Positions 2,029-29,020 of a stretch of DNA of 64,000 nt are shown piece after piece. The number at the start of each line of letters is the position of its first letter. Within the stretch, counting starts at the first letter, position 1. Made by a program: the position numbers and the translations under genes. The stretch comes from Thecamonas trahens ATCC 50062 (Eukaryota; Protista; Apusomonadida): assembly GCF_000142905.1 (NCBI RefSeq), contig NW_013657641.1, forward strand, positions 275,810-339,809. Reading direction: 5' to 3'. Under the pieces are notes generated by a model. That model saw nothing but the letters and a program-made list of their open reading frames with translations. It had not been told where the DNA came from and made no database searches.

Positions 2029-3563
2029 ATGCAACGCCGGGGAGGTGGTCGAGGCTGGATGCCTGGCCCTGTGACGGTGGTAGTGGTGGCCGGCGTGCTC
2101 GTGCTCGCCACGCTGCTGACTCAGCTTGGCTTCGGTGAACGGCGGTCGGGGCTGGCAGGGCAACGGGCTGCTCTGCGGCCCGATGCACGCCCAACTACCT
2201 TTCCGCCGCCCTCGCCTGGGTCGCACCCATTGCCTGGTGGCGGACGTCGTGACATCGAAGTCTTTCGCTCGTTTGCGCTCCTGCCGGGCACCGCGCCGCT
2301 CCCGATCAGCCACGTCGCGCAAGCGCAGTACGACGCGGCGGCGGCGGTGGTGGTGGACGGCACGGCGGAGCCTGTGGTGGTGGCGAGTCCGTGGCCACCG
2401 TTTTCTTCTGATTGGGCCGAGACGGCGATGCCACTGGACGGATACCGCGGCGATTGCCTGCAAATGCGCCGGACGGTGCGCAATCCGCTGTGCCTGCGAT
2501 CGGCGGCCGGCTGTGCGGCGAGTGACCGGCTGCTGGCCAGGGCCGGCGAGATCGAGATCTACTGGCACGAGCGGGCTGCAGCCGCAATCGGGAATGGGGT
2601 CGAGGTCTCGCCGTTGGTCCTAGCTCGGTGCAACGCACTCGAGCTGGCCTCGAGCTTTGTCGCCGAGGATGTGGAAGAGGCGTGCCTCGATGCAGAGCCT
2701 CTGCCAAGAGAGACGTCGCCGGCCAAGGCGGTGTGCGAGGCGGAACGGCGGCGGCTACGTGAGATCATGATGCCCGACGTGCTGTCGCACTGGCCTCGGA
2801 TTTCGCCGCACGATGTGTGGCGCGTGCTCGGCAAGGAGCGGATGCTGGTGCTGGGCGGCGACTCGATCGCCAGCCAGCTCGACTCGCACCTCCGCTGTGC
2901 CATGATGGAGGAGGGTGCTGGGTCGATTAAGATCTCGCGGCCTGGGCAGGACGGCGGCGAGCAACTCGATCTCTTTGCCACCGTTGGGCCCAACGGCGCT
3001 GTCGTGGCCAAGACCATCCACTACCGGTACTCCCCGGCGCTGGTCGACGCGCTGCTCGAGATAGCAGACGTCATTGTCCTCAACGTTGGTCTCCACATCC
3101 GGATCAATGGGCCAGAGGACGAGATGATGTATGCGAACGAACTACGGGCGCTGTTCGGCCATGTCCGCGAGTGGGCCAAGGAGGCCGGACACGTGTTTGT
3201 GGCGCAGCAGACGTCAGCGCAGCACTTTCCACCACCACCGGAACAGGTATGTTTGAAGACGCACGGCTTGTTGCTGGCGCGCCTTGCAGCTGCAGTCCCA
3301 TTGTCAACGGGACGCGCAAGCAGATCCGCAACGAGATCCTCAACGCGGTCGCGCGCGAGCTCGACCCCGACTCGGCATGGCTCCACATCCTTCCGCTCTA
3401 CGAGCTGACCAAAGAGTCGCACCATGCGCATCTCGGCATGATCGAGCATCGCGATCCGGCGGTTGGCACCAGCTGCGACTGCACCCACTGGTGCTACGCG
3501 CCTGCTCTGACCGAGGCCTGGCTCGGCGCACTGTACCCGATTCTCTCTGCCGAGTTTAGCTGA
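2029..3563 (+). CDS. PC-esterase/TBL-like SGNH-fold O-acyltransferase/esterase, type II membrane protein; frameshift at about 3229
   Basis: N-terminal TM (VTVVVVAGVLVLATLL), GGDSIASQL, VLNVGLH, SAQHF; C-terminal DCTHWC in ORF 3171..3563. Confidence 0.75.
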
Positions 3564-22194: not shown

Positions 22195-22326
22195 TTGCCG
22201 TCATGGCGGAGCAAGTGAACGAACGATCCATGCCTTTCCCCTCAGTAGCTGTACATTGATCTGTGTCGTTGGCACAAGCGGAGTCCTGTCTGCGCCACAC
22301 GTGTCTCGTGACTGGTCCGGCTTCCA

Positions 22327-23321
22327 TGGCGTCCGAGCCTGACAGCTCTGTCATCGAGATCGCCACCGGGATTCGGCGCGTGGTCGTCTACGCCATGTCT
22401 GACCTCCATGTCGACGAGTCACCCAACTCGGTGGTCCTGGATCGGCTGGTCGACGAGCTGGAGGGCGACAGCGGCAGCGGGAGCAGTAGCGCGAGCGGCG
22501 AGCCGGAGGCCGAGAGCGCGTTCCGATTGGCCGTCGTGGCGGGTGACGTGGCGCGGCGGCACGAGGACGTCGGTGCGGCTCTGCTTGCGCTCGTGGCTGT
22601 CTTTGACGCTGTTGTCTATGTCCCAGGCAACAACGAGCTCCGGCTCAGCTCGTCGGCTCGTGGCTCGGGCATGCTCTCCACCGAGGCGTTTGAGCAGGCG
22701 CGGGCGGCGGCTGCTCGGGCCGGCGCCATTGTCGACACGGCGATTGTGGGCGATGTCCTCGTTGTTCCGCTCGCAGGATGGCACTCGGCGCACTTTGATG
22801 GCGGCAAGCACTTTACCGGCGATGTGGCGTACCAGCGGCGATTCCTCGACTTTCGCGCCACCCGATGGCCGAGCTCGTGGCCGTCGGCCAGCCTCGACGG
22901 CGCGCCCGACGCGGCGGCAGAGTACTTTGCCCAGTTCAATGCTGGCAACATGGCGGCGGCCAAAGCGGTGCTTCAGAGGAGGGACAAGCGGATTTCTGCG
23001 CTGATCACGGCCTCGCACTTTTTGCCTCGCCTCGACGTGCTGCCTTGGCGGGCGCGGACGTTCATGTCGTCGGACGTGGTCAAGGTCATCGGCGACGACC
23101 GCATCGAAGACCAGATCCGCGAGCTACACACGGAGCTCGACGGCGAGCATGGTACTGCCCACGTCCACGTTTCGGGCCACGTTCACATCAATCACAACAA
23201 GGTCTGTGAAGGCGTGCGCTACGTTCAGAACGCGCTTGGGCACCGCCGCGAGCGGGCGCGCAGCTGCTGGACGTGGCTCTCGTCGGACGATGACTACGCA
23301 CCGCTGGCGATCTTTCCCTAG
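22327..23321 (+). CDS. Calcineurin-like metallophosphoesterase
   Basis: SDLHVD, AGDVA, PGNNE, SHF, SGHVH. Confidence 0.85.
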
Positions 23322-24328
23322 CAGCTTTGCACCGGTGACGGGGCAAGGCCCGCCAGCCAGCGGCGGGCGTTGGCGCTGGTGATGGCGATGACTTCAGCGA
23401 GAGTAGCGTCCCAGGCGACAGCGAGCGCGGCAACGAGCGGCGTGTAGTCAGCAGCCTGCTCGTTGGCCTCGTACTCTTCCAAGTCCGACTCGAGCAGGAC
23501 TTGCTCGCGCGGAATAAGGGCAATTGCTGCGTCAGTGAGCTTGGCGCTTCGCGGGCTTGAGTAGTTGATGGCCGGCGAGAGGCCAAAGAACAGGACGTCC
23601 GCGAGCGGGCCGCGGATGGCCAGCAGTGAGGTGATTAGCCCGGCTTTGAGCGAGACCGAATGCAGGGCGACGCCCGACGGAACAAGCCCGCGGCGGCTCG
23701 CGCTTGCCAGAAACTCAAACAGGTAGCCACCGGCCTGGACACAGTGGATGGAGACCGGGAGGCCGCGTGCAGCCGCGAGATCAAACTGGGCCTCAAACAG
23801 CGGCTTCTGGGCGATGTTAAAGGCCAGCCGATTCCGCCCGTTCCGCGACATCTCGGCGTATCCGTCGGGCACCTCGCCATCGGCCTCGGCTTGCGGATGC
23901 CAGCCGCGGAACTTGTCGACTCCGATCTCGCCCACAATGACTGTGTGCCCGGCCGCCGCCGCAGCGTCGAGCCGGTCGCCGAGGCGGGCGATGTAGCTCG
24001 CGACGGCGGCCGAGACAGTGGCATCGGTCGGCAGATCGTCGACTCTCAGCGACGGCAGCTCGACAACCGAGGTGGCATACCACGGATGTGTCCCGTAGCC
24101 ACCGATGCGCCACGGCGAGGCCGATGCCGACGCCGCTGCCGAGTCTGGGCCCGACTCGAGCCACTCCGCGAGCATGTCCCAGTCGTCGCTCTCGGCGACC
24201 GCCATGCTCACAGCGCCGGCGCCGACCATTTGGGACTGACCGGATCCCGTGTGGAGGTGGCAGTGGGTGTCTAGCACCTCTGTGCATGCAGCCGGCGAGA
24301 GCGGCGAGAGCGGCGAGAGCGAGGCCAT
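23318..24328 (-). CDS. TatD-family nuclease
   Basis: DTHCH, GTHPWY, GEIGVDK, SIHCVQA, LHS, LLESD. Confidence 0.9.
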   Translation of the reverse strand: MASLSPLSPLSPAACTEVLDTHCHLHTGSGQSQMVGAGAVSMAVAESDDWDMLAEWLESGPDSAAASASASPWRIGGYGTHPWYATSVVELPSLRVDDLPTDATVSAAVASYIARLGDRLDAAAAAGHTVIVGEIGVDKFRGWHPQAEADGEVPDGYAEMSRNGRNRLAFNIAQKPLFEAQFDLAAARGLPVSIHCVQAGGYLFEFLASASRRGLVPSGVALHSVSLKAGLITSLLAIRGPLADVLFFGLSPAINYSSPRSAKLTDAAIALIPREQVLLESDLEEYEANEQAADYTPLVAALAVAWDATLAEVIAITSANARRWLAGLAPSPVQSC

Positions 24329-24458
24329 GTGTGGAGAGGGGTGTGTGTGTGGCTCGGTTGGTGCGGGCACGCACCCACTCATAACACACGCGGACACGCT
24401 CTCCGTGAACACCCACGCAAGTGCTTGTGTTTGTCTTGTTCTTTAAGGTCGCTTGGAC

Positions 24459-25539: not shown

Positions 25540-25957
25540 GGTCGATGTGTGTGAAGAGAGAAACGGTGCCACTCCATTCTCACTTTGCCTGCTTTGCCAT
25601 TCACGCGAGCTCAACTCGCTCGCTGCCACCGAACCGAACCGAATTGGACGAATCGACCCAATCGACTTGAATCCATGATTGACACTCTCGTTGCGTAGCA
25701 ACCGATGCTGAGAGGGGGAGGGGGAGGGGGGACTCGCTGTGGTTGCTGGGATGGTGCGCTGGCTTGAGGGGGTGCAGGTGAGAGAGTAGATGGGATGGGG
25801 ATGGGGTGGGAGCTGATTATCGCTTGCACTCTCGATCGCCGCGTTCCATCCATAGCTCGACGTCATCAATGGAAGGTCGGCTTGGCTCGTGAGGGGCAAT
25901 AGACTTGTCTCGGGAGCCTTGCTGCGGGGCGCGGACAGACGGCGGAGGAGCAAGAGG

Positions 25958-28140
25958 ATGGAGACACTGGCTGCGCTGGCAGAGATCGAGGCGGTGTCGC
26001 CGATGGCGCGGATCGAGGCGTTGGCCGAGGCGCACCATCTGCGGGTGTGGCGGGCGGCTGATGAGAGCATGGTCTCGCTCAAGTACACCAGCGAGACCAA
26101 GCTGACGAGTACAATGGCGCGCGAGTGCCGTGGGCTGGTGCTGGAGCGCGATGATGGGCAGAGTGCGAGCGGCTGGAGGGTTGCTGCCCGGCCGATGGAC
26201 AAGTTCTCAACGCCGGCGAGCCGGATGGCGCGGCCGAGGCGGCGGCCTTTGACTGGCCGTCGGCTCGGGCGTACACCAAGGCCGATGGCACGTGCATGCT
26301 GCTCTACTACCGAGCATCGATGGAGGCGTGGCAGGTGGCGACACTCGGGTGCGGCGATGGCAGCAATGCGGTGACGCGGAGTGTGGCGGACAAGACTTGC
26401 GGCAAGGCAAGCGGGGCAGTCGAGACAGCGATGCCGGCGTCGGTGAGCACGGCCGGCACCTTTGCCGACCTGTTCTGGGCTGTCTTCCACGACGTCGAGG
26501 GCTATGCACTGCCGGACGACCGGTCGGTGACGTACGTGTTCGAGCTCACTTCGCCGCGGAACCGCGTGGTTGTTGTCCACGATACAGCGGCGCTGGAGCT
26601 GGTGGCGATGCGGGAGACGGCGAGCGGCGATGAACTGCGGCTGGATGCTCCGCAAGGTTCTGGTTTCCGGCCTGTAGCGGAGAGATGGAGGGGGAGAGCA
26701 GGCGACAGTGCGGCATCTGCGCTGGCAACGCTCCGGTCCGAGTTTGTAGGCGTGAGCCCGCTGCGGTTCGAGGGCTACGTGGTGGTCGACGCGGCGTGGC
26801 GGCGGCTCAAGGTCAAGCATCCCGGTTATGTGGCCATCCATCACCTGGACAACCGATTTGATGTCCGCAACGTGACCAACGTCATCCGATCGGGTGAGTC
26901 GAGGGAGTTCCTCACGTACTTTCCTGACTATGCACCGCTCTTTGACGACATTGCGGCACGGTTTGAGCGCCTCGCGGCACAGCTTGCGGCCGAGGCCGAG
27001 GCGCTGGCAAACGTGGGCGCGGGCAAGGCGGCTTCGCGGATGCGGGCCACATCGGTGCTGCCTGAAGCGCTGGCGCTCGTGGCCAGCGGGGCGACAAAGG
27101 TCCGCGGCGCTCTGGCGCAGATTGAGCTCAAGGCGCTGCTCGGCGCGCTGCGGCTGAAGGACGTCAAGGCCAAGTCAGGCAAGCGCAGGGCGGCTCGAAA
27201 GCGGGCGCGCAAGGCGGCTGCGGCCGCAGGAGCTGCGACGCCATGTGGCGGTGGAAGCGACGAGGGTGCAGGCTTGGGCGATGGCTGGATGGCGGCGGCA
27301 AGCCGGTGGCGCCACGGCTCGCCCGACTCGACCGACGTCGACGTGGTTTATGTGGTGCCAGCAGGGGTGGCGCTTCCGAGCTCGAGCGAGCTGATCGAGT
27401 TTGTGAGGAGAGGCAAGGAAGCCGGCGAAGATCGCAACGTGGTGCAGCTCGATGCGAGCGGGCAGGTAGCGTTTACGCTCAAGGGTGAGGCTGACGAGGT
27501 CAACAACGCGCTGGTAGCAACTGTAGGGCTGCATGCCAGCAACGCCGGGCGCACATGCCCGATTGCGGGCGTCCGGCGGCGGCGGGTGCTGCAAAAGGCG
27601 CTCAATGTGAGCTCTGCACTGGCGGGTATTGTGGCACACGCGACGAGCGACGAGGAGTTGCGGGGCGCGTGTAAGAAGGTGCTCCGCAATCGCGATGGGC
27701 GGGCGCGGTTTGCCGGCCTGGCGCGGGTGCTGGGCGGAGCGAGAGCGGAGCATGTGTGTGCCACCATTGACGTCGACGCGCGCAAGGCCGTGGCGATGCA
27801 GCTTGGCCTCGCGGTCCTGCTCTCCCGCGGCATCGAGGTGTACACCAAGGGCGAGGTGGCGGCGGCGCTGCCGGGCCTCGCGCCGCTGCTGGGGCGGGCG
27901 GCGGAGCCTGGGGCGGACGCTGTGGGCGCGCTGGGCGATGCCATCGACGAGTGGGCGAGCGGCATGGCCGGACTGCAGTGGAAGAAGGTCAAGGGCGGAT
28001 GGATCGAGGTACGGGAAGGGCGAGCCGAAGGCGGAGGCATGGCTGTGGGTGCGGTGGCCGCCGAGGTGCGCGAGGCCGGCAAAGGTGGACTGCGGGTGCG
28101 CAGCAAGGAGTGGCGTGTGGCGTATGAGGGCATGAGGTAA
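25958..28140 (+). CDS. T4 Rnl1-like ATP-dependent RNA ligase fused to a C-terminal GS..DxD nucleotidyltransferase-like domain; 1-nt deletion at about 26207
   Basis: RECRGLVL, restored KFFN.GE, motif I TKADGT, FELTSPRNRVVV, EGYVV, RLKVKHPGY; C-terminal HGSPDSTDVDVVY, KGEADEVNN, YTKGEV. Confidence 0.85.
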
Positions 28141-28493
28141 AGATGCACGACAGAAGGAGGGGCGGTGGTGTGTGAGAGATGGTGGGCGCCTTGGCGAGGA
28201 CCTGGATGTTGTTCAACGGCGCAAAGAGCGCCTTACCGACGTCCGCAAGCACGCGCGCCGCCGCACCCGACGCGCGCGAGTCGCGCCGCGACTCCTTGAG
28301 AGCAAAGTATGGGTTGTTCGCGTCAGGGCACTTATTCAAGTACGACGCCGCGTACGAGTACGACTGCGGCGCGTTCAGCGAGGGGCCCGAGCTCCCGCGC
28401 GCCGCCGGGTCTCTGCGGCAGACACAAAGAGCGCGACGACGTGAATCACCTTGCACGTGGCAAGCACCGAGTTGCCCGAAAGAATGAACGAGC

Positions 28494-29020
28494 CCCTGCC
28501 CTCTCATCGTCAAGGAGTACAACAACCATATGGGCGGCGTCGATCTCAACTCGCGCCTGCGCGCCTCGCTCTCCACTGCGCCGCCGAGGACGCGCAAGTG
28601 GTGGCACGCCATCTTGTACTGGATGCTGGACGCCGCGCTCATCAACGCGTACGCCCTCTACGCCTATCATCGACGCCCTCGCCGCCAGCGCCGACGCCGT
28701 CGGCTCCACGCCGTCGCGCAAGCGGAAGCGTCCCTCTGCAGCGGCTGCTTGTCATCACCACTCTCCCCAGCAAGCCGCTCTGCGACGCGACTGCCTCGCC
28801 TGCCGGAAGGTTCATGGTAAGCGATCGCGACCGCGGACCTCTTGCGCCGCGTGCGGCGCCCATCTCTGCATCGCCGACTGTTTTCTGTTGTGGCCCACTC
28901 GTGGCCGCAGCAGACATTAACACATTGAACTACTATTCTACCGCAATTGATGGACGTTGCGACGTCTGTGGAGCGCAGCTTGTGCGACGGACAAATTTGT
29001 CCATTCCGTACCGTAAAGGT
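28494..29020 (+). mobile_element. piggyBac-family transposon 3' remnant: transposase C-terminus, Cys-rich domain and candidate terminal repeat
   Basis: PLIVKEYNNHMGGVD...RTRKWWHAILYWMLDAALINAY; frameshifted CLAC...CAACGAHLCIADCF; abuts TTAA at 29021-29024. Confidence 0.85.

Follow-up and report, generated by a model that had tools for sequence, protein, structure and literature searches.

The question raised by this locus is whether a gene of the protist Thecamonas trahens encodes, in one polypeptide, an RNA ligase of the T4 Rnl1 type together with a second domain carrying GS and DxD motifs, and what this second domain might contribute to RNA repair. The gene lies in a 64,000-nucleotide stretch of the ATCC 50062 assembly (contig NW_013657641.1, positions 275,810 to 339,809), referred to herein as the window, and its features are as follows.

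25958..28140, + strand: Rnl1 ligase–GS/DxD fusion gene, 727 aa after one-base correction; public model AMSG_08277
25958..26206, + strand: N-terminal part of the ligase, with RECRGL and the start of KFFN (phrog_562 positions 32-77, E 6.8e-6; alignment)
26206..26207, + strand: assembly error, one T missing (extra T in three of three covering runs)
26209..27159, + strand: Rnl1 adenylyltransferase core and C-terminal helical domain (phrog_562 positions 79-299, E 6.9e-17)
27160..27294, + strand: basic, Gly/Ala-rich linker (alignment of the three same-order fusions)
27295..27585, + strand: alpha/beta catalytic lobe of the unnamed domain (conservation in 254 sequences; model pLDDT 86.5; fold search)
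27586..27987, + strand: helical lobe of the unnamed domain, with KxxAxQLG at 27784-27807 and ExYTK at 27835-27849, and without several family-conserved residues
27988..28140, + strand: C-terminal tail, of low model confidence (pLDDT <50 for residues 246-285)

Reading frame and setting of the gene

As assembled, the gene is split over two open reading frames, which the preliminary description had joined by restoring one T at about 26207. Eight of 24 sequencing runs were compared with the window, as contigs of depth 3-6, and in each of the three runs that cover position 26206 (X1, X3 and X5) the contig has one added T after it, with the window's frameshifted form found in none of these three. 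The contigs span 25776-27443 for X1, 25886-26338 for X5 (99+% alike) and 26178-26779 for X3, the last having 29 letters to the left of the site, which is under the required flank of 31. Due to the presence of the extra T in every covering run, the frameshift can be attributed to an assembly error, and the gene forms a single frame. A different extra T, behind 26916 and near the end of a contig from run X6, is absent from the other compared runs, several of which cover that site, and is probably an error. In the corrected sequence the start ATG at 25958 and the stop codon at 28138-28140 delimit 728 codons, stop included, and thus the 727 aa protein originally proposed. The X1 contig begins ahead of the start codon and continues without a break across the ligase and linker as far as the second domain; the linker is also crossed by an X4 contig (27063-27689), so that the fusion is not a mis-join.

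The top database match is AMSG_08277 of T. trahens itself, which shows 98% identity over the query, although this public model contains 701 aa and two predicted introns. The first of these, at 32 nt (26130-26161), is not divisible by three; a real frameshift or a real first intron was rejected, since the intron works only with the missing base and would excise the conserved RGL..KF segment. The second (26657-26701, 45 nt) is in frame and would remove a stretch that aligns with T4 Rnl1, making its reality doubtful. The gene would therefore appear to be intronless on grounds of conservation, the RNA contigs not reaching the ligase half. RNA run X10 yields three short pieces from the C-terminal half (27412-27698, 27906-28087), and these are not counted as evidence of expression. 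AMSG_08277 deserves correction, since part of the ligase active site is lost with its false intron.

The window is nuclear DNA of a eukaryote: the fusion gene is flanked by genes for ribosomal proteins S8e and S3, in a neighbourhood with genes for TatD, a protein kinase, SMC, kinesin, ALG6/8 and eIF4E. GC3 values for the fusion gene (0.78-0.83) are on a par with those of TatD (0.79) and the kinase (0.76), which indicates that the gene is no fresh insertion. Two and three genes upstream lie the TatD nuclease (23321-24412, -) and a calcineurin-like phosphoesterase (22263-23321, +). TatD also recurs in 18 of the 57 bacterial loci considered below; the Thecamonas protein is only 22% identical to the operon TatD, and its presence near the fusion gene was treated as coincidence. 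The C-terminal fragment of a piggyBac-type transposase (PF13843, E 4.5e-7) occupies 28488-28820 (+), 350 bases downstream of the fusion gene, and the low-complexity stretch upstream of it (25718-25788) displays several small indels between the window and runs X1-X3.

The two halves of the protein

Rnl1 enzymes join a 5′-phosphate to a 3′-OH and depend on end-healing partners; the fusion polypeptide contains neither a kinase nor a phosphatase domain. RECRGL is encoded at 26120-26137 and the motif I Lys of KADGT at 26278-26280, with FELTSPRNRVVV, EGYVV and RLKVK all in the 26155-28140 frame. In the usual motif numbering (Ia, III, IV and V), the extra T restores KFFN of motif Ia (RG..KFFN), and motifs III, IV and V are present, with their Glu residues at 26542 (III) and 26770 (IV) and Lys residues at 26809 and 26815 (V). 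Alignment of the Thecamonas protein with 58 relatives (59 sequences) reveals 12 invariant columns, which include the Lys, Asp and Gly of motif I, the Glu of motifs III and IV and the Lys pair of motif V. A profile of 51 PF09511-bearing homologues matches the two pieces of the ligase with E-values of 3.6e-8 and 6e-65, the latter over positions 79-359. Scanned in two pieces, the ligase stays under the curated cut-offs (14.3 against 28.3 bits for PF09511, and 18-23 against 242 for TIGR02308); the orthologues P0275 and L097 exceed that of PF09511. Judged from its sequence, the N-terminal half is a T4 Rnl1-type RNA ligase with intact catalytic motifs, and the assignment, motifs and coordinates first given for it are upheld by the phrog_562 match, the homologue profile and the invariant motif residues.

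Beyond a linker of 51 aa with 12 K/R, the catalytic lobe of the second domain has its GS at 27316-27321, DxD at 27334-27342, KGxxDExNN at 27481-27507 and TxxLH at 27520-27534; within HGSPDSTDVD the Gly lies at 27316 and the two Asp at 27334 and 27340. Conservation was assessed in 254 of 377 domains, near-duplicates and short pieces having been removed. GS and DxD are 98-99% conserved among these 254 sequences, in line with the GS..DxD domain initially described, and in both models GS follows the first strand with DxD on the next. Residues that are 96-100% conserved and kept here are G12, S13, S16, D18, D20, N52, G68, D71, E72, N74, N75, T80, H84, R100, K105, R127, K168, E185, K189 and R205, whilst Y81, Q86, R108, R111, F172 and Q176, at 87-98% conservation, are lost in the Thecamonas copy. 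The presumed third catalytic acid, placed by pattern and predicted strands, is Asn in 246 of 255 sequences (here N52, codon at 27436). Two residues before N52 the Thecamonas protein has an Asp, found in 9% of the family, and D71/E72 are invariant family-wide.

The domain model (pLDDT 78.6) comprises an alpha/beta lobe and a helical lobe. Of 48,161 chains searched, the best three are the Pol-beta nucleotidyltransferases AAD(9), HalB and ANT(3,9), with Z 7.1-7.2, rmsd 4.7, 180-184 aligned residues and 7-12% identity; the next row has Z 4.9. With the catalytic lobe alone, ANT and MNT enzymes come first (Z 4.9-5.2, rmsd 3.0-3.2, 79-94 aligned), and HEPN-like bundles match the helical lobe at Z 4.2-4.6. 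Hailong HalB, AAD(9)/ANT and MNT antitoxins are thus the best structural matches of the domain over both lobes, although at 7-12% identity and with a gene context different from that of the unnamed family. Foldseek gave no PDB match at E≤0.001 for either the whole domain or the lobe; with the lobe as query, tRNA splicing endonucleases come out on top (E 7e-3, roughly 60-70 columns, residues 2-63 of 97), which the fold search aligns with Z 4.8, rmsd 2.5 and 58 residues. In the ESM Atlas a stand-alone member matches Pfam-less clusters auto-named nucleotidyltransferase (0.95-0.97) and NTP_transf_2/Polbeta clusters (0.92-0.93), with no usable match there for the Thecamonas domain itself, and PDB sequence searches with two profiles returned nothing useful. 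RlaP, discussed below, is absent from the fold matches, but a sequence search finds no RlaP chain in the PDB copy used. These scores are middling, in a range that the search tool describes as common, and would show at most a shared fold. The C-terminal domain is accordingly no more than predicted to be a Pol-beta-like nucleotidyltransferase: the Pol-beta fold first suggested has the three top chains in its favour, and against it the modest Z-scores, the lack of a Foldseek PDB match at E≤0.001 and the Asn in place of the third acid.

Relatives, gene neighbourhoods and history of the fusion

Homologue searches returned two sequences at first, one of which led to 202, and a 56-sequence profile then reached 909 clusters at E≤0.001 among 1.84 billion representatives, with 150 of these listed. 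A Pfam scan of 56 members lists 25 families, with PF10127 of RlaP absent from the list and none of the 25 matching more than two members; for 105 members, NCBIfam and PHROGs give single stray matches only and PADLOC none. Among phages, 19 of 50,697 records contain a stand-alone copy; examples are Bacillus phage G gp208, Salicola SCTP-2 gp171 and those of Lak phages. Structure predictions for proteins of Klosneuvirus, Terrestrivirus and Indivirus also match the domain, with E-values of 2e-6 to 7e-5. Among eukaryotes, members have been recorded in Balamuthia, Pellita and Arcella, in two cases through transcriptome assemblies.

The neighbourhoods of stand-alone homologues, a comparison that the preliminary description had suggested, associate the domain with RNA ligases: Rnl1 lies within about 6 kb (12-kb locus) in 39 of 57 bacterial loci, and within 1.5 kb in 37. 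Other partners in the 57 loci are kinase-phosphoesterase (36), Hen1 (18), Pnkp-type ligase (17), RlaP (10) and TROVE (4), the neighbour profiles having been built from the same loci and their representatives named by Pfam. The Rnl1 count is inflated by kinship, as the link is present in 24/24 Flavobacterium and 5/5 Kordia loci and in 10/28 of the others; the linked loci nonetheless represent 11 of 23 taxon labels, across Bacteroidota, Bacillota and Pseudomonadota. Elsewhere it is seen in 2 of 20 viral and 15 of 80 metagenome loci (8/38 of those with adequate flanks), and Rnl1 is present anywhere in the genome for 6/10 phages, against 0/14 control genomes. The contention that a nucleotidyltransferase here stands in for a Pnkp-type module applies to the Thecamonas polypeptide, but in bacteria the domain is an addition to kinase/phosphatase modules.

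With regard to fusions, 32 longer representatives of the 150 listed were scanned. Seven have Rnl1 behind the domain, which is the reverse of the order in Thecamonas, two have a Pnkp-type HAD phosphatase behind it and six an NT5C-type HAD in front; five more metagenome proteins are NTase-HAD fusions. The ligase-first order is found in P0275 (897 aa) and L097 (801 aa, one open frame), so that the search for the same fusion, likewise proposed beforehand, succeeded. The three same-order proteins are 35-38% identical and form one clade in both halves, with support of 91 in the ligase tree (48 rows) and 95 in the NTase tree (45 rows), and all of them keep GS, DxD, N52, KG, DE, NN, H84, K168, E185 and K189. 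The linkers of P0275 and L097 are also K/R-rich, at 104 and 160 aa. Taken together, the shared clade, the K/R-rich linkers and the level of identity indicate that the ligase–NTase fusion is old and has been maintained. The gene upstream of L097 is split over three frames and resembles a spliced mitochondrial CX9C protein, on which grounds L097 is probably eukaryotic. The fusion gene is now a resident nuclear gene, common to at least two other organisms; the phage, giant-virus or bacterial style attributed to it is apt insofar as relatives exist in bacteria, jumbo phages and giant viruses, but does not describe its present status.

Trees were midpoint-rooted. In that of 254 rows the Thecamonas domain groups, on a long branch, with reverse-order and HAD fusions in a clade of 35 (support 92), although this clade was not retained in a smaller tree. 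An alignment suggests that in several members of eukaryote type an eroded ligase persists at the C-terminus, and that the present ligase may have been added in front later; the C-terminal tail of the Thecamonas protein is possibly the eroded start of such a former ligase. A layout of HAD and NTase followed by an apparent degenerate Rnl1 without KxDG is seen in P0187, P0194, P0203, P0212, P0218, P0223, P0265, P0266, P0327 and L093:4239-6008, at least one of these being from an amoebozoan transcriptome.

Proposed function and alternative readings

The closest functional parallel is RlaP, reportedly defined by Burroughs and Aravind in 2016. According to PMC12776372, RlaP adds 1-2 NMP to an RNA 3′-OH, prefers Mn, and improves the charging of a one-nucleotide-short tRNA after T4 Rnl1 repair; its motifs are GS, DhD and hDh, with three Asp (supplement Fig. 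S3). The unnamed family resembles it in having GS and DxD, a catalytic and a helical lobe and a stand-alone length of about 240-260 aa, in having RNA ligase and end-healing genes as neighbours and frequently being encoded in tandem pairs, and in its range over bacteria, jumbo phages and some eukaryotes. Unlike RlaP, however, it has a GS-DxD spacing of 4 residues rather than 10, Asn for the third Asp, KGxxDExNN, TYxLHxQ, KxxAFQxGQ and ExYTK motifs of its own, and, in Thecamonas, a fusion to the ligase; moreover, it occurs alongside RlaP in operons (10 of 57 loci) and genomes, with RlaP also present in 4/5 phage and 4/5 bacterial genomes tested. Comparison by hhalign of 105 members with 9 RlaP sequences gives a probability of 2.4% over 15 columns, covering the DxD strand only. 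Membership of RlaP (PF10127) was rejected, given that profile, GS loop length and third acid all differ, and by analogy the domain likely works like RlaP yet is not RlaP.

Other known systems share parts of this arrangement. Phage T4 repairs tRNA with Rnl1 and Pnkp, whilst here the ligase is fused to an NTase-like domain in a eukaryotic nuclear gene. Trl1, the fungal and plant tRNA ligase, likewise combines an N-terminal Rnl1-like ligase with further domains in one eukaryotic protein, but these are kinase and cyclic phosphodiesterase domains, where the Thecamonas protein has the unnamed GS/DxD domain. Flavobacterium operons of the family recall Pnkp-Rnl-Hen1 in also having Hen1_N, PNKP_ligase and kinase, although that system, as described in the accessible text of PMC4411300, consists of three proteins, with no nucleotidyltransferase in addition. 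Ligases of this type are not new to protists, Naegleria having seven Rnl1 proteins (PMC4408790). The literature search produced no account of the family or of the fusion, and RlaP as the sole nucleotide-restoring partner of repair ligases; section 3.4.9 of a jumbo-phage survey (PMC7824862) names RlaP, a CCA-adding enzyme and Thg1 only, and its supplement, or Burroughs and Aravind 2016, may list the family. What is new is therefore the family and the fusion, and to this extent the architecture can be called uncharacterised, as was originally said, but an NTase working with an RNA ligase is already known from RlaP (PMC12776372).

That the fusion protein serves RNA repair in some form is likely, and the broken substrate would probably be a tRNA. 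Ligation cannot rescue a tRNA that is missing a nucleotide. By analogy with RlaP, and with roughly even prospects of being right, we propose that the C-terminal domain extends a healed RNA 3′-OH by one or a few nucleotides, for the ligase then to seal. A ribonuclease would cut an RNA loop, with a nucleotide removed or damaged, and kinase and phosphoesterase from other genes would yield 5′-P and 3′-OH ends. The C-terminal domain would then bind metal and NTP via GS/DxD and move an NMP onto the 3′-OH, with the invariant D71/E72 possibly replacing the missing third acid; finally, the ligase would adenylylate its own Lys, activate the 5′-P and join the ends, the basic linker possibly keeping the RNA in place from one site to the other. 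The domain is placed at this step because its fusion partners elsewhere are makers and consumers of a 3′-OH. Counting against the proposal are the middling fold, the Asn, the lost residues and a ligase link that is not universal, as well as the coexistence of RlaP in the same genomes, since an identical job would be redundant. The role at RNA ends put forward in the preliminary description gains a strong RNA-repair context, but nothing supports an 'activation' of ends, which Rnl1 performs itself.

That same coexistence with RlaP would suit a less probable reading, in which the domain is an active NTase of an RNA-damage response with another acceptor, either AMPylating a protein, such as a ribonuclease toxin in the manner of MNT antitoxins, or making an oligonucleotide de novo like Hailong HalB. 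The nearest structural matches include HalB and MNT antitoxins, the helical lobe is HEPN-like (Z 4.2-4.6) and many phage copies have no ligase nearby; in addition, HalB primes on its own Tyr (PMC13434031) and the family has two conserved Tyr. One of these, Y81, is however missing from each of the three same-order fusions, the annotated recurring neighbour clusters include neither a HEPN toxin nor a membrane effector, and the recurring fusion partners (ligase and 3′-phosphatases) act on RNA ends. Losses of this kind, namely Y81, Q86, R108, R111, F172 and Q176 in the Thecamonas copy, with R111 (243/255 in the family) gone from all three same-order fusions, could together with the long branch indicate that in this eukaryotic lineage the domain is a non-catalytic, RNA-binding or targeting module for the ligase. 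This is nevertheless unlikely, as core residues retained at 35-38% identity point to selection on the catalytic core.

Alternatively, the domain could trim or clean RNA ends as a metal-dependent nuclease or phosphoesterase, for which the tRNA splicing endonucleases as best Foldseek lobe matches (E 7e-3), the non-canonical third acid and the short GS loop might be cited. As those matches span residues 2-63 of 97, whilst alignments with NTases take in the whole lobe and extend into the helical one, and as the operons already contain HD or HAD phosphoesterases, we regard this as unlikely. Finally, the frameshift in the window sequence and RNA contigs that do not cover the ligase half would accord with a decaying pseudogene or two separate genes; with the extra T in all three covering runs, contigs across the linker, 643 codons free of stops, undamaged motifs, neighbour-like GC3 and two orthologous fusions, this has very little chance of being correct.

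Returning to nucleotide addition ahead of sealing, it can be suggested, tentatively, that the Thecamonas protein is the eukaryotic one-polypeptide form of a second RNA-repair NTase, whose family ranges from bacteria and protists to jumbo phages and giant viruses. With its short GS loop and an Asn in place of the third Asp, the remodelled site of this NTase might perform a step beyond that of RlaP, for example base-selective or single-nucleotide restoration at a ribotoxin cut. If this were true, protists would own an add-and-seal enzyme against nucleotide-excising ribotoxins. A second, sequence-unrelated family of at least 909 clusters that shares operons with RlaP implies an RNA-repair step or specificity as yet unrecognised, the fusion offers one protein in which both steps are separable by two point mutations, and bacterial or phage-style RNA repair is extended to apusomonads and amoebozoans.

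The operons and genomes that hold the stand-alone copies display some further features. Flavobacterium repair operons are mostly headed by proteins of 746 aa (L053:3422-5659, a cluster of 21 loci) and 204 aa (L053:1932-2546), neither of which has a Pfam match, and adjoin a WYL regulator. In Bacteroidota operons a second, tandem paralogue of the domain is common (L052:5229-5993, L055:5968-6735, L079:7129-7917 and similar), which keeps GS and DxD and, in the two checked, has N52 and the DExNN motif changed (T52, KS..DS.NN); such tandem paralogues recall paired RlaP genes. In Bacillus phage G (L008), a poly(A)/CCA-type polymerase (2511-3404) lies about 4.6 kb upstream of the domain copy, and an RlaP match about 8 kb downstream of it (16527 onward).
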